Part shown: positions 6,042-64,000 of the stretch, piece by piece
How the letters are laid out: the number at the start of each line of letters is the position of its first letter
How positions within the stretch are numbered: the first letter of the stretch is position 1
NCBI GenBank assembly: GCA_041671565.1
Contig: JBAZBH010000001.1
Span: forward strand, 71,552-135,551
Length of the DNA: 64,000 bases
Origin: Patescibacteria group bacterium
Lineage (GTDB): Bacteria; Patescibacteriota; Patescibacteriia; JACRDY01
Direction of reading: 5' to 3'
Notes under the pieces: generated by a model
What the model was told of the DNA's origin: nothing
Databases searched by the model: none
Seen by the model: only the letters and a program-made list of their open reading frames with translations
Program-made: the position numbers and the translations under genes

Positions 6042-6049
6042 AAATCAGC

Positions 6050-10057: not shown

Positions 10058-10060
10058 CCG

Positions 10061-11716
10061 TTAATATATCTCCTTACGGTAGCACTCCTCACAATAAACC
10101 TTCTCCGGCCGATCTGGCGCGTAGGTGGTTTTAAACTCGTTAGCGCAACCTTCTTTCATGCATTGGCGATGGTATAGCGTTTTATTCTTATGGGTTTTTA
10201 GCCGCCGCAACATTCGGCAATCCGGGCAACAATCGGGCAAAGGAATATTTTGCTGTTGATAAAATCTGAATTCCGGTTTAATAATTTTATAATTGCGGCT
10301 GCACTCGGCGCAAGCCAAAATCTCTTGGCAAATTTTTTCGTCCAAACCGGCAACCTCATCAGGAATAGTTTTGATCGTTTCTTTTCCCTTAGTTCGGCCG
10401 ATTTCTTCCTGCCATTTGATGCCTTGCTTTAACACTTCCTCTTTGGTCAAGGCAAAATTTTCCAGCGAAGCGCGAGTTTCGTTCAACCCAAACGGCGCCA
10501 AGGCATAAGGGAAAAACTCACCCCACTCGCCCGCCGCTTTCATGGCAGTAATAATTTTGGATTTTAACTGATTATAATCGGCTTCGGCATATTTTTTATT
10601 TAATAGGCAAAAGGTTTGATTTTTTAAGCCAACTGAGCCAAAAATTTCCTTGGAACTAAAAATGCTGTCGCTATACCAAATGTGGCTGCTTTCCCAGACG
10701 ATCGAACAAAAAAAGGTGCCATAAGAGCCGCGGCCGGTAGAAGCGCACTGATAGGCTAATTGCGAAGGCGTGCCGCCATAACCGGTGCAATCATTGGCAT
10801 CTTTCATGTTAGAGCCGTTAATAACAAACCCGCAATCTTCGGCGTCCCAAATATCATAAACCTCATGGCAATTTTTGGTATAACGGACAAAATCACCGGT
10901 CGTTTTAACGGTTTTTAAATTATGGCTATAGGGGAAAATCGCTTCAGCTTTAACTGTCTGGTATTTCTGGCGCAGCTTAACTATTGCCGTTCGGCTGGCA
11001 AGTTGTTTTTTAAACTCCAGAATCTCGGCTTCGGTCGCTTGCCGGTTCCAAAGATAGTTAGTTTGATTGCGCAGATTAGTACAACCAAAACAATTGTGAC
11101 AACCAACACAGTCATAACAAAAATGGCAGTCGGCCGAGTCGCGAGAATATTCTAAATAAGAGCAATTATAACAATTTTCAATGTCAGTGCACTCATAGCA
11201 TAATTCGCTTTTATAACAAAAGGCGGCGTCCAGGCAATCGCGGGAATTATAAACCGACCAGCCATATAAACAATCTTCGCAATCGGTGGAGCCGGAAAAT
11301 TGCAAATAACAATTTTTATTCCGTGAAGTGTGGTGGGTATATTCGCTATTGATGGAATTAGTATTATTAATAGCGAGCCGCGGCACGGCCAAAAGGAGCT
11401 CGCCAAATTGCTCAAAAAATCCCCTTTGGAAATCATAATCGCGGCCAAAATCCAGTCCGTCCCACTTATCGCTAAACCAACATTCGTGGCAATAAACTTT
11501 ATAAGGTTTGTCCGGCGAATAAACCGAGACGATATTTTGTTGGCATAAATCGCATTTCCGCTGATACAAAATATATTCATTGCGCCAAACCGCCCGCTGG
11601 CGCGCTCGGCACGGCGGGCATTCCGTTGGCTCGGGCACGCCAATCCGGCCGTAAAACGCGCGGTCCTCGGGGTAAATGGTGAAGATGGATTGGCAGTTTT
11701 TACATTGCATAAGCAC
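10061..11716 (-). CDS. Cysteine-rich protein, paralog 1 of 4 (zinc-ribbon-like termini, central CxxC clusters); function unknown
   Basis: 551 aa. N-terminus CKNCQS..FYGRIGVPEPTxCPxCR; C-terminus LYHRQCMxxGCANEF.TTYAPDRPEKVYCEECYRKEIY; internal CYNCxxCxNCFGCxNLRN motifs. Confidence 0.6.
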   Translation of the reverse strand: MLMQCKNCQSIFTIYPEDRAFYGRIGVPEPTECPPCRARQRAVWRNEYILYQRKCDLCQQNIVSVYSPDKPYKVYCHECWFSDKWDGLDFGRDYDFQRGFFEQFGELLLAVPRLAINNTNSINSEYTHHTSRNKNCYLQFSGSTDCEDCLYGWSVYNSRDCLDAAFCYKSELCYECTDIENCYNCSYLEYSRDSADCHFCYDCVGCHNCFGCTNLRNQTNYLWNRQATEAEILEFKKQLASRTAIVKLRQKYQTVKAEAIFPYSHNLKTVKTTGDFVRYTKNCHEVYDIWDAEDCGFVINGSNMKDANDCTGYGGTPSQLAYQCASTGRGSYGTFFCSIVWESSHIWYSDSIFSSKEIFGSVGLKNQTFCLLNKKYAEADYNQLKSKIITAMKAAGEWGEFFPYALAPFGLNETRASLENFALTKEEVLKQGIKWQEEIGRTKGKETIKTIPDEVAGLDEKICQEILACAECSRNYKIIKPEFRFYQQQNIPLPDCCPDCRMLRRLKTHKNKTLYHRQCMKEGCANEFKTTYAPDRPEKVYCEECYRKEIY

Positions 11717-11778
11717 AGATACTCACAGATTAACACAGATAGTCACAGATCTGTGCTAATCTGTGTTAATCTGTGTCG
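11717..11778. repeat. CACAGAT-unit hairpin between paralogs 1 and 2
   Basis: cacagatactcacagattaacacagatagtcacagatctgtgctaatctgtgttaatctgtg. Confidence 0.85.
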
Positions 11779-13425
11779 TTAATATATCTCCTTACGGTAG
11801 CACTCCTCGCAATATACCTTCTCCGGCCGATCTGGCGCATAGGTGGTTTCAAACTCGTTTGCGCAGCCGGGTCTCATGCACTGCCGGTGATAAAGCCGGC
11901 GCGGATTGCGCAGTTTGATTCTTTCTAAGTGCCGGCAAAGCGGACATAACCGCGGCAGGGGCAAATTTTGTTTTTGGTAAAAGCTGATTTCCTGCGGTAT
12001 GAGTTTATAATTTTTCTGGCAATTTTGGCAAGCTAAAATTTCTTTGGCTAAACCGGCTGGCGCGTCTTTAATATCGTCCGGGATATTTTCCCATTGGACC
12101 GTTTCTTTGCCAAAAGTGCCAGGTAAATTATCCTGCCACCGCCAGCCTTTTGCCAGCACTTCTTTGCGAGTTAAAGGATAATATTCTTGCGCCACGGTCT
12201 CGTTGTAAGCATAAGGCGACATGGCAACCGGGAAAAACTCACCATATTCGCCATCAGCTTTCATCTTAGCGATAACTTTTGGCAAAAGTTTTTTGTATTC
12301 TTCTTCGCTGTATTGCTTATTCAAAATGCAAAATTTCTGACCCCGCAAACCCGAACAGGCAAATAAATCTTGCGAGGTGAAACATTGGAAGCAATATTGA
12401 ATAAAAGAATTTTCCCAGCTAAAAATATTAAACATGCAATGCGCTGAAGTATCAGCGCTCAGCACTTCATACAGCCAACTGGCCGGCCAACCGCTATTAT
12501 CGCAATCATAAGAATCAGTCACTTTTTCACCGCGATAAAAATACTTGCAATTTGTCGCTTCTTTTAAATCGGAACAATTCTTTACATCGTGGCAATAGGT
12601 CAAATAATCGCCAGTAGAATTTTCACATTTTACCTGTATGGCATGAGCCTGGATATTTTTCTTTTTAAAATCAAAAAAATCATCTTTGGCTTTCTGATAA
12701 AAAGAATATTTGCCTAATTCTTGAAGGCGATTTTTAAAATCTGCTTCGCTAATTGGCTCATTAAACCAATGATATTTGGCATTACGCAAATTCACGCAAC
12801 CAAAACAATTGCTACAGCCACGGCAGTTATAACAAAAATAAGTTTCTAGGCAGTCATGACAATTCTGGCAGTAAACACCGTTATAACAGTTTTCACAGTT
12901 AATCAAATAATAAGAAAGCTCGCATTTATGGGCATAATGCGAATCTAAAATATTACTACAATGAATATTAACGGTGCCATAATGGCTTTCTTCGCACCAG
13001 CCGCTACCCACTTCATAATAACAATTTAAATCGCTTTCCTGAAGATTGCCATAATGAGAGTTAACACAATTACGGTTAAAGAGCGCCGGACGCGGCATAG
13101 CTAAAAATAAATCGTGAATTTGTTCCATCATTGGCCGTTGCCAATCAATTTCCCGGCCATAACTAAAAGGATCCCAAGCATCGCCCCACCACTCCGCCTG
13201 TTCATAAACTGGAAACTTCTTGTCCGGCGAATAAACCGACAAAATAGTTTTACCGCTCAGATCAGACTTTCCCTGATAAAAAGTCCTTTCATTGCGCCAG
13301 GCTAACCGCCGTTGGTTGCGGCAAAGCGGACAAAAGGTTGGTTCGGGCACGCCAATCCGGCCGTAGAATGCGCGGTCCTCGGGGTAGATGGTGAAGGCGG
13401 ATTGGCAGTTTTTACAAGCGGGCAT
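11779..13425 (-). CDS. Cysteine-rich protein, paralog 2 of 4
   Basis: 548 aa; same N- and C-terminal zinc-ribbon motifs and CYNCRGCSNCFGCVNLRN. Confidence 0.6.
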   Translation of the reverse strand: MPACKNCQSAFTIYPEDRAFYGRIGVPEPTFCPLCRNQRRLAWRNERTFYQGKSDLSGKTILSVYSPDKKFPVYEQAEWWGDAWDPFSYGREIDWQRPMMEQIHDLFLAMPRPALFNRNCVNSHYGNLQESDLNCYYEVGSGWCEESHYGTVNIHCSNILDSHYAHKCELSYYLINCENCYNGVYCQNCHDCLETYFCYNCRGCSNCFGCVNLRNAKYHWFNEPISEADFKNRLQELGKYSFYQKAKDDFFDFKKKNIQAHAIQVKCENSTGDYLTYCHDVKNCSDLKEATNCKYFYRGEKVTDSYDCDNSGWPASWLYEVLSADTSAHCMFNIFSWENSFIQYCFQCFTSQDLFACSGLRGQKFCILNKQYSEEEYKKLLPKVIAKMKADGEYGEFFPVAMSPYAYNETVAQEYYPLTRKEVLAKGWRWQDNLPGTFGKETVQWENIPDDIKDAPAGLAKEILACQNCQKNYKLIPQEISFYQKQNLPLPRLCPLCRHLERIKLRNPRRLYHRQCMRPGCANEFETTYAPDRPEKVYCEECYRKEIY

Positions 13426-13431
13426 AACAAT

Positions 13432-13525
13432 AGTATTCAGGGGTCAGTATTCGGTATTCAGGGGACTATATCCACAAACACCAAATACGGACCCCTGAAT
13501 ACTGAATACTGTTCCCTGAATACTT
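13432..13525. repeat. Intergenic palindromic repeat, family C (agtattcaggg... / ...ccctgaatact)
   Basis: Related copies at 45885-45980 and 62032-62128. Confidence 0.7.
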
Positions 13526-13527
13526 AT

Positions 13528-14037
13528 TTACAATAACTGCTCTGCCTGCTTCAACGCCCCGGGCAAGAGCGGCAAGAGGATTTTTACGCCGAGAAGGAGC
13601 CAGGGCGCCACGGCCGAAGTGGCCATTTGCGCGGTCAGCCAAGCGCTGACCGGATATTGGGAGAGAAAATAAACCGTTAAACTAACGACGCACAAACCTT
13701 CTAATAGGCCAAAGACTAGGCCCACCAGCCGATTGATGGTTTTGAGAAAAGGGATAATACTGATAATTTCAAAAATACGGTTAACCAAATAAAACAGCAA
13801 GCCGACCAAGCGGCTGACGATAATTAGAATCAAGAAAAATGAAATTAATCGGCCCCAGTTGCCATCCCCCCAAAGGAAACTGCCCCAACCCGCCGCCAGC
13901 TGATAATAATGGCCGGCAACAAAAGCGCCGAGGAGCACGCCGAGGAGTGTGCCAAGCGCTTGAATAAAGCCGGAAATCAGGCCGAGAAGCGCGAACAGGC
14001 CGAGGATGATAAGCAAAGCCAGGTCGAAAGTGAGCAT
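13528..14037 (-). CDS. cvpA: CvpA family membrane protein
   Basis: 169-aa polytopic membrane protein; N-terminus MLTFDLALLIILGLFALLG typical of CvpA. Confidence 0.6.
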   Translation of the reverse strand: MLTFDLALLIILGLFALLGLISGFIQALGTLLGVLLGAFVAGHYYQLAAGWGSFLWGDGNWGRLISFFLILIIVSRLVGLLFYLVNRIFEIISIIPFLKTINRLVGLVFGLLEGLCVVSLTVYFLSQYPVSAWLTAQMATSAVAPWLLLGVKILLPLLPGALKQAEQLL

Positions 14038-22235: not shown

Positions 22236-22316
22236 CTGTCAAGGACGAATATATTTTTAATCAATGTCACCGCGCGTGGCCAAATTTTTATTTAAAACAA
22301 ACTTAAAAATGATTGA

Positions 22317-22400
22317 ATATGGTTTTATGGTTTTATGGCTCTATGGTTGGATAAGTTAAAGAGTCTAACCATAAAGCCATAAAGCCATAAAGCCATAAAC
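22317..22400. repeat. Intergenic palindromic repeat, family B copy
   Basis: ggttttatggttttatggctctatggttggataagttaaagagtctaaccataaagccataaagccataaagccataaac. Confidence 0.7.
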
Positions 22401-22458
22401 TTACTTAAAAACCCCGCCACAGCGAGGTCTCCACCTAACAACTTAACGACCTATCAAC

Positions 22459-30036: not shown

Positions 30037-30069
30037 AGAAAAGATTTAGGATTTAAGAATGGTGGTGAT

Positions 30070-30190
30070 TGATGTTAAGACTAATAATCAAGATATCACA
30101 TAACATGGAACACATAACAAGAGACCTATAACCACCCTTGCTTGCCCCGCGCATGCTGGGGTTCCATGTTATGTGTTATGTGATTTTAAC
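30070..30190. repeat. Intergenic repeat, family E (atcacataacatggaacacataacaagagacctataaccaccc, about 130 bp); inverted copy at 55905-56010
   Basis: Reverse-complement identity between the two loci; this copy carries an extra central GC hairpin ccccgcgcatgctgggg. Confidence 0.8.
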
Positions 30191-30262
30191 CAAGTTATAT
30201 CGCTAAGATGCTAATTTACCGACCATTCTTAAATCCTAAATCTTAAATCTTAAATCTCCTTT

Positions 30263-38997: not shown

Positions 38998-39212
38998 ATC
39001 CACACAATTTTTCTAAATTCTTGACCGACCATTTTTAAACTGTTATACTTTTGTCTTCTTAAATAATTAATTTCTGATAAAAATATGAAAAAAGGTCAAA
39101 CCGCCGTCTATCAAGCAGAATCCGCTAGCTCTGAATCAACTGAAAAAGTTTGGACGCCGGAAGATTTGAAGATGATTAGATTGAAGAAAGAAGGATTAGC
39201 GGGATAGAAGTA

Positions 39213-39287
39213 AAAACAGATTTGCACAGATAGACACAGATCAGCACAGATCCGTAAATATCTGTGTGAATCTGTGCAAATCTGTGT
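39213..39287. repeat. CACAGAT-unit hairpin downstream of paralog 3
   Basis: cagatttgcacagatagacacagatcagcacagatccgtaaatatctgtgtgaatctgtgcaaatctgtg. Confidence 0.85.
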
Positions 39288-40928
39288 TTAATAAATTTCT
39301 TTCCGATAACACTCGCGGCAATAAACTATTTCCGACCGGTTTGGATTATAAGTAGTCTGAATTTCTTGTTGGCACTTTGCACAAACACGCGACCAAAGTT
39401 TCTGCGGATTTCTTTGATGCAATCGGTCTAAATGTCGGCAGAGGTAGCATTTATCCGGTAACGGCAGATTTAAATTCTTATAAAACTTCAATTCTTGAGC
39501 AATAATCTTAAATTGCCGGCCACAAGCGCAAGCAAAAACTTCTTGGCAAATACTGTCCTTTACTCCCACGATGCTGTCTGGCGGTAAGTTAGCTTCAACC
39601 GCCTTTTCCTCTTGCTCGTACCAAGCTAAACCGCGACTAGTCGCCTCTTCTTTTGACAAAGGATAATAAAACCTGGCAGTTGTCTCATTATAACCAAAAG
39701 GCGAATAACGCGCCGGAAAAAATTCGCCATACTCGCCGGCCGCTTTCATTCGTTCGACAATTTTTTGGCGTAATTTAGTATACTCGCTTTCGGTATATTG
39801 TTTATTTAAGATACAAAATTCCTTTTTCTTCAAACCGCAACAGCCAAAACAATTTTTACAGCCGCTGCACTCCGAACAATATTCCAAATTTTGAGAACCA
39901 AAATAACAATGGAAGCAAAATCGACAATTATAATTATTTTCACCGACGATTGCCGACTCGTACATTAATTGGCTATTACCCCACTGAAAAACATCGTACA
40001 TGTCCTTGGAACTAAAATAAATAGCATAGCAATAACGGCAATTCTGCACTTCGCGGCAATCATATGAATCTTTAACTTGATTAACATTATTTAAATAATC
40101 GCCGGTGCAACCTTCATTTTTAACGCCATGCTGATAAAGATAAGGATATTTCAATCGATCGACGGCATGCTTTTGGCGCCAAATCTCAACTGCTTGGCGG
40201 CTACCAAGATTGGCCTCGGCCAAACGCCGCTGATAATCTTCAACTTTAAGCTGCTGGTTAAACCAACAATAATTTTGATTACGCAGATTAACACAGCCAA
40301 AACAATTATTGCAGTTAAAACAATTTTTCAAAAAATAACTCTCGGAACAACTCCGGCAATCCTGTGAATAAAATAAATTAAAACATTCATCACAATCAAT
40401 ACAACTATAACACAATTCACATTGGTGAACTTTTAAACAATCAACTAAATCCTTAGAGTTATTAACGGAATAAGAATAATAACAATCTTCGTTAAAGTCG
40501 CTGTCAAATATCAGATAACAATTTTTGACATGGCCGCAATAATTAACATAATCGCTATTATTTAAAGTTCCGTAAGTAACATTTAAGGCCGAGTGAGGCA
40601 CTTGATAATAAAAACTAAAAAATTGTTCAAAAAAAGTTTTTTGCTCGTCATAATCAATGCCAAAATCAAGCCCCTCCCAACCGTCACCCCACCAGACATG
40701 GGCATCACAAACCGCTATTTTACTCTCCGGGCGATAGGCGGAAATAATATTTTTGCCGGATAAATCGCATTTTCTTTGATATAAATTCATTTCGTTAACC
40801 CAGGCGAGCCGCCGTTGCTGCCGACAGTTAGGGCAGAGTGTCGGCTCGGGTACGCCAATCCGGCCGTAGAACGAGCGGTCCTCGGGGTAGATAGTGAATG
40901 GTTGGTTACAATTTTTACAGGCAGGCAT
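39288..40928 (-). CDS. Cysteine-rich protein, paralog 3 of 4
   Basis: 546 aa; MPACKNCNQPFTIYPEDRSFYGRIGVPEPTLCPNCR ... SEIVYCRECYRKEIY. Confidence 0.6.
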   Translation of the reverse strand: MPACKNCNQPFTIYPEDRSFYGRIGVPEPTLCPNCRQQRRLAWVNEMNLYQRKCDLSGKNIISAYRPESKIAVCDAHVWWGDGWEGLDFGIDYDEQKTFFEQFFSFYYQVPHSALNVTYGTLNNSDYVNYCGHVKNCYLIFDSDFNEDCYYSYSVNNSKDLVDCLKVHQCELCYSCIDCDECFNLFYSQDCRSCSESYFLKNCFNCNNCFGCVNLRNQNYCWFNQQLKVEDYQRRLAEANLGSRQAVEIWRQKHAVDRLKYPYLYQHGVKNEGCTGDYLNNVNQVKDSYDCREVQNCRYCYAIYFSSKDMYDVFQWGNSQLMYESAIVGENNYNCRFCFHCYFGSQNLEYCSECSGCKNCFGCCGLKKKEFCILNKQYTESEYTKLRQKIVERMKAAGEYGEFFPARYSPFGYNETTARFYYPLSKEEATSRGLAWYEQEEKAVEANLPPDSIVGVKDSICQEVFACACGRQFKIIAQELKFYKNLNLPLPDKCYLCRHLDRLHQRNPQKLWSRVCAKCQQEIQTTYNPNRSEIVYCRECYRKEIY

Positions 40929-41013
40929 AACAAAGTTATAAAGTTGAAAGTTATAAAGTTATAAAGTTTTCTAGTTCCCTAAACTTTCTACTTTATAACT
41001 TTATAACTTTCAA
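40929..41013. repeat. AAGTTATAAAGTT-unit hairpin between paralogs 3 and 4
   Basis: aagttataaagttgaaagttataaagttataaagtt ... aactttataactttataactttcaact. Confidence 0.8.
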
Positions 41014-42654
41014 CTAATAAATCTCTTTCCGATAACATTCCTCGCAATAAACCTTCTCCGGCCTTTCCGGCGAATAAGTGGTCTCGATTTCCGTCCCGCA
41101 TTGGTCGCATTTTCTTTGGTATAAGTGCCGCGGGTTACGGAGCTGCATGCGGTCTAAATGACGGCAATCAGGGCACTTCCGGGGAATCGGCAAGCCAAAT
41201 TGGCGATAAAAACCAAGCTCCGGCTTGATAATTTTATAGTTTTTGCCGCAAACGACGCACGCCAAAACTTCATTGAGAATATCATCCGGCACCGCCTTGA
41301 TCTCGGCTGGCGTTTGATAAACCTGCTTTTGATATTCCCGCGCGTCTTTCTGTTTCCAAGCCCAACCTTTGGCCTTCACCTCGGCCTCACTCAACGGAAA
41401 ATAATCATTGGCCACGGTTTCGTTATAGGCAAAAGGCGAAATCTGAATTGGGAAAAACTCACCCCACTCCCCGGTCTTTTTTAGATGTTCAATAATTTTT
41501 GGCACTAACTGATTATATTCTTTTTCCGTGTATTCTTTGTTGAGAATGCTAAAATGCCGCTTGCGCATCACGGAACAGCCAAATAAATTTTTACTGCTGT
41601 CGCACCAATCGCTGTAATAAATATCATTGCACTGGTAACAGGCAAAAGAATAAAATGCCCGATAATTTTTCCAGGAAGCGATGTAATCACAGCACAGTTC
41701 GTTGTTTTCCGTGTAATTATTGTCATAGCAATCTTTGAGGTCAATCACCTGCGCCGAGTAAGCGCTGTCCTCGCACCGCTTGGCGTCAAACGACTGCCGG
41801 CAGTTTTTGCTTTCATTGATATAATCGCCGCTAACCCGGACATTTCTCAACCCTTGCAAATATCGCCGCGGCAATTTTAATTTATTTTTTTCCAGCTCGG
41901 CTTTGACTTCTGCCACCTTTCCCGGATTGCACCAATTTAACTCGGCTTTGAACTTTTCATAATCCGCTTCGCTGTATTGGCGGTTGAAAATCTGATGGTG
42001 GACATTCCGCAATCCAGCGCAACCGATACACTCGGAACAACCGCGGCAATCATAGCAATAAAACAAATTGTTACTGTCAAAACAATCCTGGCACCAGCAA
42101 CAGCTGTAAAGATGCTCGGAAGTGACACACTCATAACAAAGTTCGCAGTCGCGGATCAAAAGCGAGTCAACGCAATCTTTGGAATAATAAGGGTTGCCGT
42201 AAAGGCAATTTTCAATAAAAATACTGCCGTAGCAGAGATAACTGTTTTTGGCGTCGCCCAAATAATTGCAATAATCGCTGTTAACGATATTGCCACCAGC
42301 CTGCACCGTGCCAGCGCGCGGCACGGCTTTCAAGAGTTCATCGTATTGGCTAAAAAACGGCCGGCTAAAATCAAACTCCCGGCCAAAAGCCGTCGGATCC
42401 CATTTGTCTGAATACCAACAATCGCGGCAATAAACTTTATAAGGCTTATCCGGCGAATAATTGGATAAGATCTTTTTATGGCAAAGCTGACACTCAGCCG
42501 AATAAAAAACCCGTTCGTTGCGGAGGGCCATCCGGCGCTGAGCGCGGCAATCTGGACAGTGCGTTGGCTCGGCTAAACCAAGCTTAGCGTAGAACGCGCG
42601 GTCCTCGGGGTAGATAGTGAATGGTTGACTGCAATTTTTACATTGCATAAACAT
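41014..42654 (-). CDS. Cysteine-rich protein, paralog 4 of 4
   Basis: 546 aa; MFMQCKNCSQPFTIYPEDRAFYAKLGLAEPTHCPDCR ... PEKVYCEECYRKEIY. Confidence 0.6.
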   Translation of the reverse strand: MFMQCKNCSQPFTIYPEDRAFYAKLGLAEPTHCPDCRAQRRMALRNERVFYSAECQLCHKKILSNYSPDKPYKVYCRDCWYSDKWDPTAFGREFDFSRPFFSQYDELLKAVPRAGTVQAGGNIVNSDYCNYLGDAKNSYLCYGSIFIENCLYGNPYYSKDCVDSLLIRDCELCYECVTSEHLYSCCWCQDCFDSNNLFYCYDCRGCSECIGCAGLRNVHHQIFNRQYSEADYEKFKAELNWCNPGKVAEVKAELEKNKLKLPRRYLQGLRNVRVSGDYINESKNCRQSFDAKRCEDSAYSAQVIDLKDCYDNNYTENNELCCDYIASWKNYRAFYSFACYQCNDIYYSDWCDSSKNLFGCSVMRKRHFSILNKEYTEKEYNQLVPKIIEHLKKTGEWGEFFPIQISPFAYNETVANDYFPLSEAEVKAKGWAWKQKDAREYQKQVYQTPAEIKAVPDDILNEVLACVVCGKNYKIIKPELGFYRQFGLPIPRKCPDCRHLDRMQLRNPRHLYQRKCDQCGTEIETTYSPERPEKVYCEECYRKEIY

Positions 42655-42664
42655 TATCTCCTAC

Positions 42665-42752
42665 GAATTACGAATCAGCGCGAATGTACGAATTACGAAT
42701 CGCCGTGGTGGCTGGATTCGTACATTCGCGCTGATTCGTAATTCGTAGGGGT
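42665..42752. repeat. Perfect roughly 35-bp-arm inverted repeat (ctacgaattacgaatcagcgcgaatgtacgaat / attcgtacattcgcgctgattcgtaattcgtag), cgaat family
   Basis: Read directly; upstream of paralog 4. Confidence 0.85.
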
Positions 42753-44882: not shown

Positions 44883-44937
44883 AGGGGTGAAAGTTAAGAA
44901 TAATAAGGTTATTATAGCAAAAATTTGGGATAACAGA

Positions 44938-45016
44938 CATGGTTTTATGGTTATATGGTTATATGGTTGGATGAATTAAAGAGTCTAACCATAAAGCCAT
45001 AAAACCATATAACCAT
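44938..45016. repeat. Intergenic palindromic repeat, family B copy
   Basis: catggttttatggttatatggttatatggttggatgaattaaagagtctaaccataaagccataaaaccatataaccat. Confidence 0.7.
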
Positions 45017-45074
45017 TAGATTTAAACAAAAACAAGGCTCAAAGGCCTTGCTAAAATTTATTATTCATCTTGTT

Positions 45075-45878: not shown

Positions 45879-45884
45879 GATGAA

Positions 45885-45980
45885 TAAGTATTCAGGGAAC
45901 AGTATTCAGTATTCAGGGAACCATATCCCCGAACACTGAATTTGAACCCCTGAATACTGAATACTGACCCCCGAATACTC
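45885..45980. repeat. Intergenic palindromic repeat, family C copy
   Basis: aagtattcagggaacagtattcagtattcagggaacc...cccctgaatactgaatactgaccc. Confidence 0.7.
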
Positions 45981-45982
45981 TT

Positions 45983-46753
45983 TTAAATTTGGTAATGGGA
46001 GAATTTGACTACCTTGGCGGAACCGAGCAGTTGTTCCACGGTTTGCTGGTCGTCTTTGATATAAGCCTGGTTTAAGAGGCAAACTTCAGAGTAAAATTTG
46101 GCTAATTTGCCGGCGATAATCTTATCCCAAACCGCCGCCGGCTTGTTTTCATTTTGCAACTGTTCGCGATAGATTTCTTTTTCTTTATCAATAATCTCGG
46201 CCGGCACCTCGGCTGGCGACAAATATTTTGGCGCCATCGCCACCACTTGCATGGCGAGATCAATGGCTAACTGCTCACTGCCGTTGTCCAAAACCACAGC
46301 CGCGGCCGCTTTTTTATTGGAATGGAGATAAATGCCGACGACCGGCCCGCTGACCACTTCCGCGGCCGCTAGTTTGATATTCTCCCCGATTTTAATGATT
46401 AATTCTTTATTGATCTTGTCTTCGGCTTTGGCCTTAAACTCAAGCAAATCGGCCGTTAATAATTCTTTGGCAAATTCTTCTACCGCCGCGACAAAATCCT
46501 GATTGCGGGAAACAAAGTCGGTTTCACAAGCGAGGCCAACCACAGCGGTTTTGGCGCCGTCTTGGGCAATGGCAATCAAGCCTTCTTTGGTGCTCCGTTC
46601 GGCCTTCTTGCCGGCTTTTTCCAAACCCTTTTTACGCAAGAGTTCCACCGCTTGATCAAAACTGCCACCAGCTTCTTCCAAAGCTTTTTGGCAGTCAACC
46701 ATACCGGCGCCGGTTTTCTCGCGGAGTTGTTTAATGGCTGAGAAGTCTGACAT
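45983..46753 (-). CDS. tsf: Elongation factor Ts
   Basis: N-terminal UBA-like IKQLREKTGAGMVDCQKAL; 256 aa. Confidence 0.9.
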   Translation of the reverse strand: MSDFSAIKQLREKTGAGMVDCQKALEEAGGSFDQAVELLRKKGLEKAGKKAERSTKEGLIAIAQDGAKTAVVGLACETDFVSRNQDFVAAVEEFAKELLTADLLEFKAKAEDKINKELIIKIGENIKLAAAEVVSGPVVGIYLHSNKKAAAAVVLDNGSEQLAIDLAMQVVAMAPKYLSPAEVPAEIIDKEKEIYREQLQNENKPAAVWDKIIAGKLAKFYSEVCLLNQAYIKDDQQTVEQLLGSAKVVKFSHYQI

Positions 46754-55715: not shown

Positions 55716-55904
55716 TAAACTTATTTAAACTTTTTAAAATTAAAATTCGCGGCCTTGGCGGTTCGCGCCTGTTGGGCCTGCTGAAAACGGAAAACCGCCG
55801 GTGTGCGATAGCCCGGCCGGCCGGAGCGGTTGCCGACTTTAGCGTGGTTCTTCATATGATTTAAGAATGCCTGTAGATTAGCTTTTTGCAGTATAACTTG
55901 GTTA

Positions 55905-56010
55905 AAATCACATAACACATAACATGGAACAAGGGTGGTTATAGGTCTCTTGTTATGTGTTCCATGTTATGTGATATCTTGGTTATTAGTCTTAACACCA
56001 ATTACCACCA
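55905..56010. repeat. Intergenic repeat, family E, inverted copy
   Basis: Reverse complement of 30070-30190. Confidence 0.8.
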
Positions 56011-56020
56011 TTCTTAAATC

Positions 56021-56482
56021 TTAGTAGTGGTATTCCTTCCCCTTCACAATCGCCACCGCCCGGTAAAGCTGTTCCGCCAGCACCACCCGCGCCAACTCAT
56101 GCGGCAAGGTCAGTTGCGACAAGGCGATTTTGTGCGAATAGGCCTTTTTAATCTCGTCGCTAAAACCCAACGCCCCGCCGATTACCAAAACCAGGGTCTC
56201 GCACTGTTGGTCCAGAAACCGCGCCAATTTCTCGGAAGTCATTTCCGCGCCGCGTTCGTCCAGAAGATAAATCTGATTTTTTTGATATTTACCCAAAAAC
56301 TCCGTCAGCCGTTCGGCTTCTTTAGCTTTAGCGCGAAGGTGGTTAGCGGCGTTAAACGGCTCGGGCCGGAGCTCCGCCATCTCTACTTTAAGATACGGCC
56401 GCAGTCTTTTCAAGTATTCCTCCACGGCCGAACGGTAATGCGGTTCTTTAATTTTGCCAATTGCCAGAATGATTATCTTGGT
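56021..56482 (-). CDS. rlmH: 23S rRNA (pseudouridine1915-N3)-methyltransferase RlmH
   Basis: SPOUT family; C-terminus LSQLTLPHELARVVLAEQLYRA. Confidence 0.8.
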   Translation of the reverse strand, partial: TKIIILAIGKIKEPHYRSAVEEYLKRLRPYLKVEMAELRPEPFNAANHLRAKAKEAERLTEFLGKYQKNQIYLLDERGAEMTSEKLARFLDQQCETLVLVIGGALGFSDEIKKAYSHKIALSQLTLPHELARVVLAEQLYRAVAIVKGKEYHY

Positions 56483-57690: not shown

Positions 57691-58284
57691 ATGGCAGCAT
57701 TAAATTTTGTCGTTATCGACGGCATAATCTACCCGGCCGGCGATAAACCGACCAACTGTCCCCAACCAACGACTTGTATCCAAACTTTCAGATATGATCG
57801 TACGGCAATTCAAATTCTTCGCCATCTAGCTGGACTTGATGACGAAGTATTCTGTGGTCACAAAAAACTTTGCTGGCGAGATTGCCAGCTGGACTGTCCG
57901 GCGAAGAAACAAATGGAGGCGGCGCTAAAGTCGCCGAATAAGGAGGAAACCTTGAAAAAGCAATTTGTAAAAATTATTCCTGCTACCTATCATAACGGCG
58001 GAATCGGTAGCACCCAGACCTGGGTCAACGGAAAAAAATCCACCAGCGTCGGCACGGTCGTGGCCGGGCGGTCATACGATCTGGGAGTACTTGACTTGAT
58101 GGAAACCATCACCATCACCACCGGCTATCTGGTCGTCAACGGCATGAGGTATTGCGCCGGTCAGGTGATCAGGCTACGCAAAGGCCAAAAGGTGACCCTG
58201 GAAGTTAAAAATGGCCTTTCGGCCGACTACCGTTGCGTCTACGGCAATCTCCGCTATCGCCGTAGTTTGCCCGGTCTTGCCTGA
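57691..58284 (+). CDS. Hypothetical Cys-rich protein (197 aa)
   Basis: SD ttGGGAGGcgttaaaATG at the internal Met MAALNFVV. Confidence 0.45.
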   Translation: MAALNFVVIDGIIYPAGDKPTNCPQPTTCIQTFRYDRTAIQILRHLAGLDDEVFCGHKKLCWRDCQLDCPAKKQMEAALKSPNKEETLKKQFVKIIPATYHNGGIGSTQTWVNGKKSTSVGTVVAGRSYDLGVLDLMETITITTGYLVVNGMRYCAGQVIRLRKGQKVTLEVKNGLSADYRCVYGNLRYRRSLPGLA

Positions 58285-58307
58285 TAATTTACTTCATTCA
58301 TCACCCT

Positions 58308-58340
58308 GCCCGTCGATTCATTTCGATGGGCGGTTTTTTT
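58308..58340. terminator. Rho-independent terminator (gcccgtcga-ttcatt-tcgatgggc then T8)
   Basis: 9-bp stem with one G.U pair, then a T-run. Confidence 0.6.
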
Positions 58341-58969
58341 TAGTTAAAATTATTCCTATCCCTCTCCCACAGCAAAGGGTTATCTCGGATATATTCCACG
58401 ATATTGTTATAATCATCCTCGTTACTGATAATATGCTCATAATAATTCCTCTGCCATAGCCGATGATTAAACGGCAACCAATGGTTTTGTTTAACCTGTT
58501 TGATATATTCATTAGTGGTCATAGTTTTAAACCATTGGATAAATTGAGGCACGCCTCGTAGGGGCGGACCCGTGTGTCCGCCCCGAACAAGGGTGTTTCC
58601 GGCCATAACAAATTTATTACCGTCCATGGATACAGGTTCTGAACAAACGGCCGAGTTTGAACAAATCCCAGGGCGGACACGCGGGTCCGCCCCTACAACA
58701 CCCATGATCTCAATAATGGCGTGTAAATGGTTAGGCATAATGACAAATGGGCCTAATTTGATGCCAGGGAATTTCTTTTCCAATTTTAGCCACCAATCCA
58801 AGACCAGCCTGCCAGCTTGGTTTAAAACCATCTGTCTGTCTTTAATCTCGCCAAATAGGTGTTTCTTATCTTGGGTGCAAAGGGTAATAAAATAATCGCC
58901 TGACTGGGTGTAATCGTAGGTGGCAAGGCGAATGGAATGGCGATGATGGAGGTTGGGTTGATAAGGCAT
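58340..58969 (-). mobile_element. REP-associated tyrosine transposase (RAYT; IS200/IS605-like Y1 transposase) with an in-frame 150-bp insertion
   Basis: HuH motif MPNHLHAII; RAYT-like C-terminus WQRNYYEHIISNEDDYNNIVEYIRDNP; extra 50 aa relative to typical RAYTs. Confidence 0.65.
58557..58696. repeat. REP-like GC-rich palindrome doublet inside the RAYT ORF (cgtaggggcggacccgtgtgtccgcccc ... gggcggacacgcgggtccgcccctac)
   Basis: The two ends are inverted copies, each itself a hairpin. Confidence 0.75.
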
Positions 58970-59156
58970 ATTAACCCCACCTTAACATACCAATTCTAAA
59001 CTAAATCTAAACTAATCATTAAATATTTCTAAACTTTTTATTAACTAATTCTAAACTCGCCTAAATACCAAAAAAACTGGCGAAAATTCCAGTTTTAATG
59101 AGCGCCAAGTTTAGAAAGGAGTTTTCCTCTGTACTCTGCACTCCGCACTCTGTACT

Positions 59157-62018
59157 CTATAACACCTTCCGCAAAAACTTCCCCGTGTAACTGTCTTTAT
59201 CTTTCGCCACTTGCTCCGGCGTGCCGCGGGCGATGACGCGGCCGCCGCGGTCCCCGCCTTCGGGGCCGAGGTCAATCAGATAATCCGCGGATTTAATCAC
59301 ATCCAAATTGTGTTCAATCACAATCACGGTGTTGCCTTTGTCCACCAGGCGATTGAGGACCGCCAAGAGTTTTTCAATGTCGGCAAAGTGCAGGCCGGTG
59401 GTCGGCTCATCCAAGATGTACAGCGTCCGGCCGGTGTCGCGCTTGGACAACTCGGCGGTCAGTTTGATCCGCTGGGCCTCGCCGCCGGACAGCGTGGTGG
59501 CGGACTGGCCGAGTTTGATGTAGCCCAGGCCGACATCCACCAAGGTTTGCAGTTTGCCGGCAATCCGCGGGATGTTTTTGAAAAAAGCGAGCGCCTCTTC
59601 CACGGTTAAATTTAGGATTTCGGCAATGTTCTTCTCCCGGTATTTCACCTGCAAAGTTTCTTCGTTAAAACGGGTGCCGTGGCACTGTTCGCAAGTGACA
59701 AAAACATCGGGCAAAAAGTGCATTTCAATCTTGATCACGCCGTCGCCCTCGCAATTGCCGCACCGCCCGCCGGCGACATTGAAACTAAAGCGGCCCGATC
59801 TATAACCGCGCACCCGCGCCTCTTCGGTCTGAGTAAACAGCTCGCGCATATAAGTGAAAACACCGGTGTAAGTCGCCGGATTACTGCGCGGCGTCCGGCC
59901 GATCGGGCTTTGGTCAATAATAATCGCCTTGTCCCAATAGCCGAAATTTTCAAGGCTCTCGTGTTCGCCCGGGCTGACTTTGGCCTGATAAAGCTTTTTG
60001 GCGAGAATCGGGTAAAGCGTGTCGGAGACTAGGCTGGATTTGCCCGAGCCGGAGACGCCGGTGATACAACAAAACACTTCCACTGGGAAATCAACATTAA
60101 TGCCTTTGAGGTTATTGTGGCGGGCGCCGATCAGGTTAACCATGCCCCGCGGCCGGCGGCGCTTCTCCGGCACGGCGATAATTTTGCGGCCGGAAAGATA
60201 AGCGCCGGTCAGCGATTTTTTGTCTTTAATCACTTCGCTGGGCTTACCCTCTGCCACGACCCGGCCGCCATGAACCCCGGCTCCCGGGCCGATGTCAATC
60301 AAATGATCCGCCGCCATGATGGTCTCGGCGTCATGCTCCACCACAATCACGGTGTTGCCGAGATCGCGCATTTCTTTCAGGGTTTTAATCAGCTTCTGGT
60401 TGTCGCGTTGGTGCAGGCCAATCGACGGCTCGTCCAAGATGTAAGTCACACCGCGCAATTCCGAGCCGATTTGCGTCGCCAGCCGGATGCGCTGAGCTTC
60501 GCCGCCGGACAGCGACCCGCCCCGCCGGCCGAGTGATAAATAATCGAGACCGACATCCACGAGAAAACCGGCGCGGTCGTTAATTTCTTTAAATATCTGC
60601 CCGGCCACCTCGCTGTCGGTTTTGCCCAGATCCAAGCCGTTGAGAAATTTCAGCAAGTCTTTAATGGACAGCTCGGTAATTTCATGGATGTTTTTGCCGC
60701 CAATTGTCACCGCCACCGCTTCCGGCTTCAGCCGCGCGCCATGGCAAACGCCGCAAGGCTTGGCAATCATATACCGTTCCATTTCCTGCCGTCGGCTGTC
60801 CGAGTCGGTTTGTTTGTAAAGTCGCTCCAAGCGCGGAATAATCCCCTCCCACTTGCCGGTCCACTCCCAGACATTGTCCGTGCTTTTGGATTCAAACTCC
60901 CAGTCAATTTTATCGTCAGTGCCGTGGAAGAGAATGTCTAAAATTTTCTTGGGCAAACTTTTGACCGGCGTCTCCACGCTAAAACCGTATTTCTTGCCCA
61001 GTATCTCCAGCATCTGGCCAAAAAAGCCAAACGAACTAAAACCCTGCGGCTTAATCGCGCCTTCGGAAAGCGTCCATTCTTTATCCGGGATAATCAAATC
61101 CGGGTCAAATTTCTGGATGAACCCGAGACCATGGCAAGCCGGGCAAGCGCCAAATGGCGAGTTAAAGCTAAAAAGGCGCGGTTGCAGTTCTTCAAAACTG
61201 AGTCCGCAATCCGGGCAAGCCAAATGTTCGGAATAAACTTTCTCGGTCACCGCTCCGGGTTTGCCCGACGGGCCGGTCGCCGGCCGGCTGATCAAAGCAA
61301 TCAATAAACCACTACCGAGTTTTAAACCGGTTTCCACCGCCCGCTGGAGCCGGGCTTTCTCAGCCGCGGCTAATTTCACCCGGTCCACCAGCGCTTCAAT
61401 ATTGTGAGTGCCGTACCGTTCCAAAGTGGATTTACCGCCGCCGAAGTAGTCGGACCCGAGCGTCATCTTGCCGTCCACCCGCAAACGGTCATAGCCTTGT
61501 TTATTTAGATCAACAAACAGTTGTTCGTAGTTGCCTTTCTTGCCCCGCACCACCGGCGCCAGGATTTCCACTGTCTGCCCGGCGAACTCGGACAGCAAAC
61601 TTTTGGTGATTTTTTCCGCGTCCTGCGAGCGGATTTCTTGGCCACAAAGCGGGCAATGCGGCGCGCCGATCCGGGCGTAAAGCAGACGCAGATAGTCGTA
61701 AATCTCGGTAATCGTGCCGACCGTTGACCGCGGATTATGGGAAATGCTTTTCTGCTCAATGGAAATCGCCGGACTGAGGCCCTTGATGCTGTCCACATCC
61801 GGTTTACCCATCACGCCCAAAAACTGCCGGGCATAAGACGACAGGCTTTCGACATAACGGCGCTGGCCCTCGGCGTAGACGGTATCAAACGCCAAGGTCG
61901 ATTTGCCGCTACCGGACAGGCCGGTAATGACCGTCAGTTGGTTAATCGGGATATCGACGGAGATGTTTTTGAGGTTGTGCTCCCTAGCCCCTCTGACTTG
62001 AATAAATTCTGTGGACAT
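59157..62018 (-). CDS. uvrA: Excinuclease ABC subunit A
   Basis: Two ABC ATPase modules (GLSGSGKST, GVSGSGKSS) and zinc-finger Cys pairs; 953 aa. Confidence 0.95.
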   Translation of the reverse strand: MSTEFIQVRGAREHNLKNISVDIPINQLTVITGLSGSGKSTLAFDTVYAEGQRRYVESLSSYARQFLGVMGKPDVDSIKGLSPAISIEQKSISHNPRSTVGTITEIYDYLRLLYARIGAPHCPLCGQEIRSQDAEKITKSLLSEFAGQTVEILAPVVRGKKGNYEQLFVDLNKQGYDRLRVDGKMTLGSDYFGGGKSTLERYGTHNIEALVDRVKLAAAEKARLQRAVETGLKLGSGLLIALISRPATGPSGKPGAVTEKVYSEHLACPDCGLSFEELQPRLFSFNSPFGACPACHGLGFIQKFDPDLIIPDKEWTLSEGAIKPQGFSSFGFFGQMLEILGKKYGFSVETPVKSLPKKILDILFHGTDDKIDWEFESKSTDNVWEWTGKWEGIIPRLERLYKQTDSDSRRQEMERYMIAKPCGVCHGARLKPEAVAVTIGGKNIHEITELSIKDLLKFLNGLDLGKTDSEVAGQIFKEINDRAGFLVDVGLDYLSLGRRGGSLSGGEAQRIRLATQIGSELRGVTYILDEPSIGLHQRDNQKLIKTLKEMRDLGNTVIVVEHDAETIMAADHLIDIGPGAGVHGGRVVAEGKPSEVIKDKKSLTGAYLSGRKIIAVPEKRRRPRGMVNLIGARHNNLKGINVDFPVEVFCCITGVSGSGKSSLVSDTLYPILAKKLYQAKVSPGEHESLENFGYWDKAIIIDQSPIGRTPRSNPATYTGVFTYMRELFTQTEEARVRGYRSGRFSFNVAGGRCGNCEGDGVIKIEMHFLPDVFVTCEQCHGTRFNEETLQVKYREKNIAEILNLTVEEALAFFKNIPRIAGKLQTLVDVGLGYIKLGQSATTLSGGEAQRIKLTAELSKRDTGRTLYILDEPTTGLHFADIEKLLAVLNRLVDKGNTVIVIEHNLDVIKSADYLIDLGPEGGDRGGRVIARGTPEQVAKDKDSYTGKFLRKVL

Positions 62019-62031
62019 ATTTTTTATTATA

Positions 62032-62128
62032 AAGTATTCAGGGAACAGTATTCAGTATTCAGGGGAGGGGTCGGTATCCACCGTTCGCGGATATAGTTCC
62101 CTGAATACTGAATACTGTTCCCTGAATA
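62032..62128. repeat. Intergenic palindromic repeat, family C copy
   Basis: aagtattcagggaacagtattcagtattcagggg...ccctgaatactgaatactgttccctgaatact. Confidence 0.7.
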
Positions 62129-64000
62129 CTAATCTTGTTTAATTTCCTTAATCTTCTCCCTTAATTCAATGGCTCGTTCAAAGTCCAGCCCCTCCGCCGC
62201 CGCCTGCATCTGCAATTCCAGCTCAATCACCAGTTGTTCGCGGTCCAGATTTTTACCAGTCAAGTCGGGTGAAATAACTTCTTCTTGCTTTCTGATTTCT
62301 TTAACAATACTCTCCGGCGTGATGCCGTGTTTCTTATTGTAGGCCAGCTGAATCGCGCGCCGGCGGTTGGTTTCGCTAATCGCTGATTTGATCGAGCCTG
62401 TCTCGGTGTTGGCATACATCACCACTTTGGCATCAACATTTCGCGCCGCCCGGCCAATCGTCTGGATCAAACTGCGGGCGTTGCGGAGAAAGCCTTCTTT
62501 ATCCGCGTCCAGTATCGCCACCAAAGCCACTTCCGGCAAATCCAAACCTTCACGGAGCAGATTGATGCCGACGAGTACATCGAACTTACCCAGCCGCAAA
62601 TTCTGGATGATCTTAATCCGGTCCAAGGTGTCAACTTCGCTGTGCAAATACTCGGCTTTAATCTTTTGTTCCACCAAATAACGGGTCAAATCCTCGGCCA
62701 GGCGCTTGGTCAAAGTGGTGACCAGCACGCGGTAACCTTTGGCAATCGTCTGCCGGATTTCGCCTTCAACATCTTTAATCTGGCCCTCCGCCGGCTTGAT
62801 AAAAATCTCCGGGTCAACCAGCCCGGTCGGCCGAATAATCTGCTCTACCACCTGGCCGGAGTGTTCCAGTTCGTAGTCGCTGGGCGTCGCCGAAGTGTAA
62901 ATCACCCGGCCCAGATATTTTTCAAATTCCGGGAAAGTCAGCGGCCGATTGTCATAGGCTGACGGCAAACGGAAGCCGTGGTCGATCAAATTCTCCTTCC
63001 GCGACCGGTCGCCGCCGTACATGCCGTGGACTTGCGGCAGAGCGACATGGCTTTCATCCACCACCATTAGCCACTCGCCTTTGGTTTTGAAATAATCTAA
63101 TAAAGTGTAAGGCGGTTCGCCCGGCTGCCGGCCGTCAAAGTGGCGGGAATAATTTTCCACACCTTGGCAGTAGCCTAATTCCTCAATCAGTTCTAAGTCA
63201 TAATTCGTCCGCTTTTCCAGTCGATAAGCCTCCACCGGCCCCAACTGCGGCAATCTTTCTTTTAACTCCTGCCGGATAGTTTTCAAAGCTGACTGTTTGC
63301 CCACTTCGGTAAAAACAAAATGCTTGGCCGGGAAAATCCAAGCGCTCGGCAAGTCCTGAATCCGAGCAAAGGTGATGGCATGGAGTTCAATAATTTTAAC
63401 TAACCTCTGGCCGTCAAACTCTAACCGCAAAACCGTGGTGCCCGAGCCGGCCATCAGCTCCAGCCGGTCGCCGCGCCGCCGGAAACTGCCGGGCTTCAGC
63501 CGATTATCCTCATTTTCATATTGCACTGCCACCAGCTGGCGGACCAAATCATCCGGGTTAATTTTCTGCCCGACTTTTATCTCCTGGGCGCTGGCTTTGA
63601 AGTTGTCCGGCCGGCCGAGGCCATAAATGCAGGAAACCGACGCCACAATAATCACATCATCGCGCGACATCAAGGCCGCGGTCGCCTCCAGCCGCAGCTG
63701 CTCAATCTTCTCGTTAATCTGGACATCTTTCTCAATATAAGTGTCGGAAATCGGCAGATAGCTTTCCGGCTGGTAATAGTCATAATAGGAAACAAAAAAA
63801 CACACCTTGTTTTCCGGGAAAAAATCGCGGAACTCGTTGTAGAGCTGGGCGGCGAGCGTTTTGTTGTGCGACAAAACCAGGGTCGGCTTTTGGATCTTTT
63901 GAATCACATTGGCCACCGTAAAAGTCTTGCCCGAGCCGGTCACGCCAAGGAGCGTCTGCTGGGGAAACTTGCCATAACCCTTAACTAATTGTTCAATGGC
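62129..64000 (-). CDS. uvrB: Excinuclease ABC subunit B (N-terminus beyond window end)
   Basis: GVTGSGKTF Walker A; helicase motifs; ORF remains open past 64000. Confidence 0.9.
   Translation of the reverse strand, partial: AIEQLVKGYGKFPQQTLLGVTGSGKTFTVANVIQKIQKPTLVLSHNKTLAAQLYNEFRDFFPENKVCFFVSYYDYYQPESYLPISDTYIEKDVQINEKIEQLRLEATAALMSRDDVIIVASVSCIYGLGRPDNFKASAQEIKVGQKINPDDLVRQLVAVQYENEDNRLKPGSFRRRGDRLELMAGSGTTVLRLEFDGQRLVKIIELHAITFARIQDLPSAWIFPAKHFVFTEVGKQSALKTIRQELKERLPQLGPVEAYRLEKRTNYDLELIEELGYCQGVENYSRHFDGRQPGEPPYTLLDYFKTKGEWLMVVDESHVALPQVHGMYGGDRSRKENLIDHGFRLPSAYDNRPLTFPEFEKYLGRVIYTSATPSDYELEHSGQVVEQIIRPTGLVDPEIFIKPAEGQIKDVEGEIRQTIAKGYRVLVTTLTKRLAEDLTRYLVEQKIKAEYLHSEVDTLDRIKIIQNLRLGKFDVLVGINLLREGLDLPEVALVAILDADKEGFLRNARSLIQTIGRAARNVDAKVVMYANTETGSIKSAISETNRRRAIQLAYNKKHGITPESIVKEIRKQEEVISPDLTGKNLDREQLVIELELQMQAAAEGLDFERAIELREKIKEIKQD

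Follow-up and report, generated by a model that had tools for sequence, protein, structure and literature searches.

REP-type hairpins inside the coding sequence of a subclass 2.4-like RAYT gene from a Patescibacteria genome

A stretch of 64,000 nucleotides from a Patescibacteria group bacterium (contig JBAZBH010000001.1 of assembly GCA_041671565.1; this whole 64-kb stretch is referred to below as the window) contains, at positions 58340-58969 of its minus strand, a gene for a REP-associated tyrosine transposase (RAYT), within which lie two inverted copies of a repetitive extragenic palindromic (REP) hairpin. The locus raises the question of whether such palindromes have disrupted the gene, are tolerated by its product, or are kept there because of what they are as nucleic acid. 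An earlier interpretation, here called the sequence-only reading, had considered the enzyme either inactivated by its own cargo or provided with an extra loop, and had named it as the only obvious candidate mobiliser of the palindromic repeat families. The features on which the argument rests are the following.

58340..58969, minus strand: RAYT (TnpA_REP) gene, TnpA_Y1 subclass 2.4-like, 209 amino acids (open reading frame list, profiles and fold)
58975..58983, minus strand: Shine-Dalgarno-like AAGGTGGGG, 5 nt ahead of the ATG (direct sequence reading)
58721..58729, minus strand: codons H81-L82-H83 of the HUH motif (sequence; H81 and H83 invariant in alignments A1 and A2)
58671..58696, minus strand: 5' REP GTAGGGGCGGACCCGCGTGTCCGCCC, GTAG head on the coding strand, translated V92-G-A-D-P-R-V-R-P100 (repeat and pattern search)
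58584..58670, minus strand: 87-nt spacer between the REPs, encoding GICSNSAVCSEPVSMDGNKFVMAGNTLVR, predicted to be disordered
58558..58583, plus strand: 3' REP GTAGGGGCGGACCCGTGTGTCCGCCC, GTAG head on the plus strand (CTAC on the coding strand), translated from the minus strand as G130-G-H-T-G-P-P-L137 (repeat and pattern search)
58391..58393, minus strand: catalytic tyrosine codon Y193 in YIRDNP (aligned to Y115 of 4ER8; invariant in A1 and A2)

A RAYT gene with a translated REP doublet

The open reading frame (ORF) is uninterrupted and its product was identified as a RAYT-type Y1/HUH protein by profiles, by alignment to a solved structure and by fold, in agreement with the sequence-only reading. 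Pfam PF01797 (Y1_Tnp) matched with 30.4 bits (E = 4.7e-07), above its gathering threshold of 23, but only over residues 138-197, the C-terminal half. The match to the NCBIfam RAYT model falls into two stretches, as the insert splits both models, and the NCBIfam transpos_IS200 model was not reached (21 bits versus a cutoff of 55). A phmmer search against the PDB aligned residues 170-199 to positions 92-121 of the Escherichia coli TnpA_REP (4ER8), with Y193 corresponding to Y115, W172/Q173 to W94/Q95 and E178/H179 to E100/H101; a catalytic tyrosine downstream of the insert, which the sequence-only reading had wanted to see, is therefore present. The HUH histidines lie within MPNHLHAII (H81 codon at 58729-58727, H83 codon at 58723-58721), the W motif is W172-Q173 and the tyrosine motif Y193-I-R-D-N197-P198. 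The protein ends 11 residues past the NP motif, with a last helix at 184-203 and no C-terminal domain. With HUH, WQ and Tyr all in place, the catalytic apparatus is intact, and the AAGGTGGGG upstream of the ATG suggests that the gene is translatable.

The structure was modelled with AlphaFold2 on 32 sequences. The core has a predicted local distance difference test (pLDDT) score above 90, and Foldseek matched the model to the IS608, ISDra2 and IS200 TnpA proteins and to 4ER8 (E ~1e-6 to 1e-5). Residues 98-133, between the strand at 81-88 and the helix at 139-162, have a pLDDT below 50 and no secondary structure. In the model the translated REP pair forms a disordered loop at the surface, which bears out the suggestion of an extra loop with HUH and Tyr left intact.

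The inverted arms at 58558-58583 and 58671-58696 are each 26 nt long, 96% complementary and separated by 87 nt, and each forms a hairpin of its own, GTAG-GGGCGGAC-(CCGYGT)-GTCCGCCC, with an 8-bp GC stem and a 6-nt loop; one loop base is all that distinguishes the two copies. Both have the marks of a canonical long REP, namely a 5' GT[AG]G at the foot and a stem that begins with three G-C pairs in a row. The inverted doublet of GC-rich hairpins was thus rightly recognised after the HUH motif, with coordinates correct to 1-2 nt. Its size had been put at 150 bp or 50 codons, which is approximate: the doublet measures 139 nt from GTAG to CTAC, and the segment that is extra with respect to REP-less homologues comprises about 44-48 codons (residues ~92-139). 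The further statement that its length is an exact multiple of three says no more than that the ORF is open. A 166-nt segment spanning the doublet folds as one long hairpin, at -43.9 kcal/mol as DNA (z = -5.7) and -89.6 kcal/mol as RNA (z = -7.5), and none of 200 shuffles was as stable. The doublet being palindromic, 58555-58698 translated in antisense (plus strand) gives a peptide similar to the sense one, which appeared as a tblastn self-hit.

When the REP pattern was searched for with at most 3 mismatches, the 64 kb gave two matches, both intragenic, versus 0.00 expected from 100 shuffles. A scan for GT[AG]G followed by a GC-rich stem found no other convincing hairpin in the window; there is no GTAG hairpin outside the ORF within 1 kb of the gene, no related copy in the 64 kb and, within the same limits, no dispersed, over-represented population of REPs or of REP doublets (REPINs). 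An Rfam scan of 58200-59200 gave no match; its two chance hits, both below threshold, lie outside the ORF. The window holds no second copy of the RAYT gene, and the paralogue P0002, described below, is not located in it.

The insert and its nucleotides among homologues

The protein has 6370 database relatives, found in Patescibacteria, Bacteroidota, Chloroflexota, Cyanobacteria, Planctomycetota, Nitrospinota, Desulfobacterota and other phyla; carriers include Phocaeicola faecalis, Tenacibaculum piscium and Comamonas denitrificans, and the gene is present in complete genomes such as CP113000.1 and OY970288.1. The arrangement VGADxRVxP, variable linker, GxHxGxPL occurs at the same site in 32/32 aligned proteins, the linker often carrying additional copies of either motif, and both motifs are present in 99 of the 120 best hits. 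A control search was run with the insert removed from the query, to avoid a bias driven by the insert itself; 76 of its 120 best hits have both motifs and 25 have one, while several relatives read the REP DNA in another frame (GQTHRSAPT; VGAALCGRP...GQPHRVAPTLGD). At the DNA level, 65 of the 73 genome loci with a parsable gene have at least one GTAG hairpin inside it, the density of such hairpins being 2.85 per kb within genes versus 0.316 per kb in the flanks. The order is forward then reverse, heads out, in 49 of the 55 genes with two or more REPs, and the reading frames are nearly fixed: the 5' REP of the window agrees in frame and orientation with 67/75 forward REPs of homologues, and the 3' REP in frame with 57/70 reverse ones. 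The cores of homologues from different phyla are about 50% identical, yet the position, orientation and frame of their REPs hardly vary. Inactivation by the gene's own cargo is contradicted by this recurrence and by the intact HUH and Tyr, and the idea of a recent insertion peculiar to this gene fails as well. The trait is a published hallmark of subclass 2.4 (PMC6006769). The sequence-only reading had named homologues with this segment but without palindromic DNA as grounds for refutation; homologues do carry the segment, in palindromic form, and the reading is not refuted on this count.

The paralogue P0002 (79% identical) has the same doublet with a diverged spacer, in which 18 of 29 residues are identical (counted on alignment A1) versus 79-82% identity overall; in other homologues the spacer is unrelated. 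Since the doublet is common to both genes, the arrangement predates their duplication. These comparisons show the REP arrangement to be inherited and common to most of the homologues sampled. Strict universality was rejected in view of the REP-less and other-frame relatives brought up by the insert-deleted search. Partial REP units are tandemly amplified in the linkers of P0017, P0100, L002, L019, L060 and L066 (for example IVGADLRVCP x8, GEHTGQ x3, PLGEQQ x6), which suggests replication slippage at the hairpins and would explain linkers ranging from 18 to 164 residues.

The motifs VGADxRVxP and GxHxGxPL are the two REP orientations translated in fixed frames, and their codons are far more uniform than the same codons in the conserved core of the same genes: GGG is used in 61/61 cases versus 29% in the core, GAC in 52/52 versus 31%, GTA in 58/61 versus 19% and CTA in 59/62 versus 4%, and the codon after Leu begins with C in 57/62, completing CTAC. 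The variable residues follow the pairing of the stem. The x2/x6 pairs of GxHxGxPL are E-S (46), A-A (12), G-P (10) and T-V (1), with complementary codons in 69/73; in VGADxxVxP, position 3 of the Ala codon and position 1 of codon 8 form a pair in 64/69, and four Watson-Crick types occur, the type setting the residue as R, C, G or S. Among 51 distinct REPs picked only by their GTAGGGG head, 96.1% of stem cells are paired versus 85.1% in column shuffles, and double-sided changes number 46 versus 12.1 (0/500 shuffles in both cases), with pairing of at most 62.5% in slid-register controls. Substitution is also slow: a comparison of 14 related gene pairs gave differences of 40% (227/571) at four-fold sites of the core, 19% (29/156) in REP loops and 3.3% (17/520) in head and stem, the last mostly as compensated pairs and at a divergence about 12-fold slower than that of synonymous sites in the same genes. 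Taken together, the comparisons indicate that the constraint on the REP head and stem bears on nucleic acid (DNA or RNA) and not on the peptide.

In 42 of 49 genes the stem of the 5' REP is unlike that of the 3' REP, so that what is conserved is each local hairpin with its GTAG head, and not the long hairpin of the doublet. A conserved long REPIN hairpin was accordingly rejected as a family feature, although it holds for the window and for L201, the closest non-paralogous relative, which are among the exceptions whose two REPs share a stem. Template switching ('quasipalindrome correction') was considered as a source of covariation free of selection; it could produce the compensated changes but cannot account for the slow substitution or for a conserved GTAG head beyond the local stem.

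L201 lies on a contig of 40% GC resembling those of the candidate phyla radiation (CPR), and both its REPs consist of the same 26-mer, GTAGGGGCAAACCTTTGTGTTTGCCT, with no further copy in the 20.6 kb. Its stem (GGCAAAC) differs from that of the window by compensated changes in both arms. In these two CPR genomes the intragenic pair is, as far as the 64 kb and 20.6 kb extend, the only copy nearby, and its arms have changed in concert. Of 74 loci, 27 have REPs with the same 12-mer beside the gene. About 12 of the homologous loci resemble the window in having no flanking REPs.

The sequence-only reading had wanted other copies of the hairpin to be sought. They are absent from the rest of the window and common in other metagenomes: the exact head and stem, GTAGGGGCGGAC...GTCCGCCC, was seen in at least 120 metagenomic stretches (L081-L200). 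Their loops fall into two classes, CYNYGT as in RAYT genes, and GCATTC, GACTCT, GCCTCT, GCCCTC and similar, and some stretches cluster 2-4 copies within 350 nt (L147, L136). Among the matches listed, 142 of 147 copies do not adjoin a detectable RAYT homologue, many of the contigs being short. These contigs are GC-rich, and stop-to-stop ORFs cover most of their positions, genic or not.

Known relatives and other repeats in the window

Subclass 2.4 of the TnpA_Y1 proteins was defined by Quentin, Siguier, Chandler and Fichant (2018, BMC Genomics 19:475, PMC6006769) and equals the RAYT Group 4 of Bertels, Gallie and Rainey 2017. It is characterised by an HUH motif NH[IFV]H, WQ, a tyrosine motif YIxNNP, a variable insertion between strand beta3 and helix alphaC, an 8-residue insertion at the end of alphaB and no conserved C-terminal extension, and in-frame REPs inside its genes have already been reported, where they were treated as insertions of little impact (PMC6006769). 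The protein from the window shares the NH-u-H form of the HUH motif, WQ, Y-x3-NP, the lack of a C-terminal extension and the variable beta3-alphaC insertion made of in-frame REPs; it also shares the canonical long REP, with its 5' GTAG and three basal G-C pairs, and the scattered distribution over many phyla at low copy number per genome. It departs from the consensus in having L as the hydrophobic HUH residue (not I, F or V), D in place of N as the fourth residue of the tyrosine motif (YIRDNP) and Ser in place of a conserved Arg, the equivalent of E. coli R104. Its host is a CPR metagenome-assembled genome, a group not named in the taxon list of Quentin et al., and, unlike the majority of subclass 2.4 genes in that paper, which have flanking REPs, it has none within 1 kb or in the 64 kb. 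With in-frame REPs already known, the gene is a typical member of a described subclass and no new phenomenon. A text search of the literature after Quentin et al. 2018 found no later work on subclass 2.4.

The E. coli TnpA_REP, or RayT (YafM; 4ER8, subclass 2.2, Group 2), has the same Y1 HUH fold, WQ...EH and a catalytic tyrosine in (D)YIxxNP (Y115 there, Y193 here), and acts in a system of GTAG-headed REPs for which recognition of single-stranded DNA (ssDNA) hairpins is known. Its gene is flanked by REPs (a REPtron) and not interrupted by them; the short beta3-alphaC linker leaves ~27 residues between HUH and WQ, compared to 83 in the window, and the E. coli REPs have bulged stems and are dispersed in hundreds of copies. 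The IS200/IS605 TnpA proteins (IS608, ISDra2) also share the fold, the HUH and Tyr chemistry, ssDNA hairpins and a 5' guide tetranucleotide, but their tyrosine motif is Y-x3-Q, their hairpins are subterminal and outside the gene, and they are multicopy, often with tnpB. An IS200/IS605 identity was rejected on account of YIRDNP, the 21-bit IS200 profile score, the single copy in the window and the lack of flanking hairpins.

Rickettsia palindromic elements (RPEs), from the work of Ogata et al., are reportedly in-frame palindromes translated as extra surface peptides. Intragenic REPs and RPEs are often dimers encoding 20-30 residues, and they are sporadic, at varying sites in unrelated host genes; in the present case the host gene is the presumed mobiliser, and site, orientation and frame are conserved across phyla. 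Intragenic GTAG REPs in frame with coding genes, likewise translated as extra surface peptides, were described in general by Di Nocera et al. (2013, BMC Genomics 14:522).

The other repeats and palindromes of the window are as follows.

881-973, 6043-6135, 9977-10067, 11705-11785, 13426-13536 and 22311-22404: AT-rich spacer palindromes
39206-39296, 42660-42749, 44931-45024, 45884-45985, 62021-62136 and others: AT-rich spacer palindromes, continued
58306..58333, plus strand: terminator-like hairpin with T-run of the convergent upstream gene, 7 nt past the RAYT stop codon

The AT-rich palindromes lie in many of the spacers between co-directional minus-strand genes and are built of 3-4 tandem short units (8-11 nt) followed by inverted units, for example ACAGATnnnC, ATGGTTTT / AACCATAA, AGTATTCAGGG and TAGCCGATAGC. 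The units vary between spacers, and some families recur; the spacer between uvrA and the RAYT gene (58984-59110) is of the same style, with TTCTAAACT units. A link between the RAYT and these palindromes was rejected, as they lack both a GT[AG]G head and a GC-rich stem and do not resemble the REP in sequence; the proposal that the enzyme mobilises the palindrome families of the window is unsupported. The hairpin at 58306..58333 has no GTAG head and was rejected as a REP.

The segments 30047-30206 and 55885-56023, each ~160 nt long and separated by 25.7 kb, are inverted copies of one another (96% over 94 nt and 93% over 46 nt). They may mark the ends of an invertible or mobile segment, or may simply be an intergenic module present twice. 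At 10061-13425 and 39288-42654 are two tandem pairs of paralogous genes for proteins of ~550 residues, four copies with 60-80% DNA identity over stretches and a tandem-unit palindrome before each. The RAYT genes of both CPR loci adjoin DNA-repair genes, which may be a coincidence: in the window uvrB-uvrA lies upstream (uvrA at 59157-62018; uvrB-uvrA = L204 4922-9813), and in L201 (7801-11160) recG lies upstream of the RAYT gene and a purine DNA glycosylase gene downstream.

What may keep the hairpins in the gene

We consider it likely that the gene is a TnpA_Y1 subclass 2.4 RAYT with its cognate REP hairpins inside it, and that these are its own ssDNA substrate. In subclass 2.4 the cognate REPs lie within the transposase gene, at the loop that joins the HUH strand (beta3) to alphaC and usually heads-out (GTAG-hairpin ... 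hairpin-CTAC), and the encoded HUH enzyme would recognise the hairpins through the GTAG guide and the stem; the constraint on their nucleotides would then follow from their being its substrates. The gene would hold its own REP doublet (REPIN) in cis as a resident copy, which may persist at a site where the protein tolerates extra residues and may be kept intact by the interaction of enzyme and REP or by repeated re-copying. In a CPR genome without visible dispersed REPs, the intragenic pair may be the only substrate of the enzyme. Such a pair may serve autoregulation, may be a master copy from which REPs spread, or may merely be retained. Going further, it is possible, and we propose it tentatively, that the doublet is no tolerated passenger but a selected cis-acting element (a master REPIN residing in the gene, or a site for self-recognition or autoregulation) which in streamlined CPR genomes is the sole REP copy. 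If true, this would be a 'REPtron turned inside out', persisting without a dispersed repeat population.

Several observations speak against this interpretation. NCBIfam NF047646 (REP_Tyr_transpos, an equivalog model) reached 60.5 bits over 2 stretches, below its curated cutoff of 80. The family has Arg in at least 90% of members where the present protein has Ser182 (codon 58424-58426; Ala in P0002). The E. coli residues in contact with the GTAG guide are W94, Q95, E100, H101 and R104 (Quentin et al. 2018, PMC6006769); the equivalents of the first four (W172, Q173, E178 and H179) are conserved and that of R104 is Ser182, whose presence may weaken GTAG recognition. Both REPs keep perfect GTAG heads despite Ser182. 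Homologues with a short linker and absent or decayed REPs retain HUH and Tyr (P0121, P0129, P0176, P0179), which shows that the protein can do without REPs. The copy count covers 64 kb of the genome, and further copies may lie elsewhere in it. In many other genomes the same type of REP flanks the gene or is dispersed, and re-seeding from such an external pool could there mimic purifying selection. Finally, the biochemistry of Corneloup 2021 covers groups 2 and 3 only, not subclass 2.4.

The main rival is that of a passive passenger, the reading of Quentin et al. 2018, in which the enzyme's own activity, biased for cis, inserts REPs in and around its gene, only those in the permissive beta3-alphaC loop survive, and they have no function, being REP-like because they are young or because they are replaced or gene-converted from a genomic REP pool. 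We regard it as a serious possibility, though less likely than not. It finds support in the hypervariable length and copy number of the linker with its tandem expansions, in the reading of REP DNA in other frames, in REP-less members with intact catalytic residues, in the flanking REPs of the 27 loci and the many metagenomic copies outside RAYT genes, and in the disordered, peripheral loop of the model; it sits poorly with a position, orientation and frame nearly fixed across phyla and with a head and stem so much slower than synonymous sites. Nor does it readily account for the two CPR loci, where no external pool is seen in 64 kb and 20.6 kb and the arms are perfect and have changed in concert, or for a doublet older than the duplication that gave rise to P0002. 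The constraint could also act on RNA, the hairpins of the mRNA slowing translation, setting its half-life or attenuating transcription and thereby limiting a potentially genotoxic nuclease. The RNA fold is indeed very stable, the 5' REP is terminator-like on the coding strand, and REPs of E. coli affect translation and mRNA decay (literature; discussion in Di Nocera et al. 2013). We nonetheless find this unlikely, since the unpaired GTAG/CTAC head is conserved like the stem (GTA 95%, CTA 95%); a head conserved outside the local stem points to guide recognition by TnpA_REP, and hence favours ssDNA over a generic RNA hairpin. The unlike stems of most genes show that a long RNA hairpin is not conserved, Rfam gave no match in 58200-59200, and G-U mismatches were not in excess of A-C ones, although these counts are too small to decide.

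The two remaining explanations concern the protein. VGADxRVxP and GxHxGxPL are the most conserved part of the linker and might be a pair of functional peptide motifs with the DNA palindrome as a by-product, but this is very improbable given that synonymous sites are fixed, that residue covariation tracks codon complementarity (E-S, G-P, A-A, T-V), that some homologues translate the same DNA in other frames, that the segment is predicted to be disordered and that REP-less homologues exist. That the gene is a pseudogene, inactivated by the insertion of its own cargo, is scarcely credible: the missed NCBIfam cutoff, the Pfam match over half a domain and Ser182 could be read in this way, but the frame is open behind a strong Shine-Dalgarno-like sequence, HUH, WQ and Tyr are intact, the core is modelled with high confidence, and the same architecture recurs in 99/120 best hits, in 65/73 loci and in the 79%-identical paralogue.

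What is new here with respect to the described subclass is the fixation of codons, the compensatory changes in the stems, the slow evolution of the REPs, the disordered-loop model, the concerted change of the arms in CPR loci, and the occurrence of a subclass 2.4 RAYT in a CPR host without flanking REPs. For annotation, the lesson is that VGADxRVxP, GxHxGxPL and GQTHRSAPT are translated REPs, which split domain models and cause curated cutoffs to be missed, and that REP-derived peptides can give rise to false ORFs and to false homology between database entries. RAYTs are regarded as domesticated transposases by which REP/REPIN populations are maintained. Subclass 2.4 would be the one lineage in which the hairpin substrate lies inside the coding sequence of the enzyme itself, and the constraint described here turns what was considered a tolerated insertion into a testable question.

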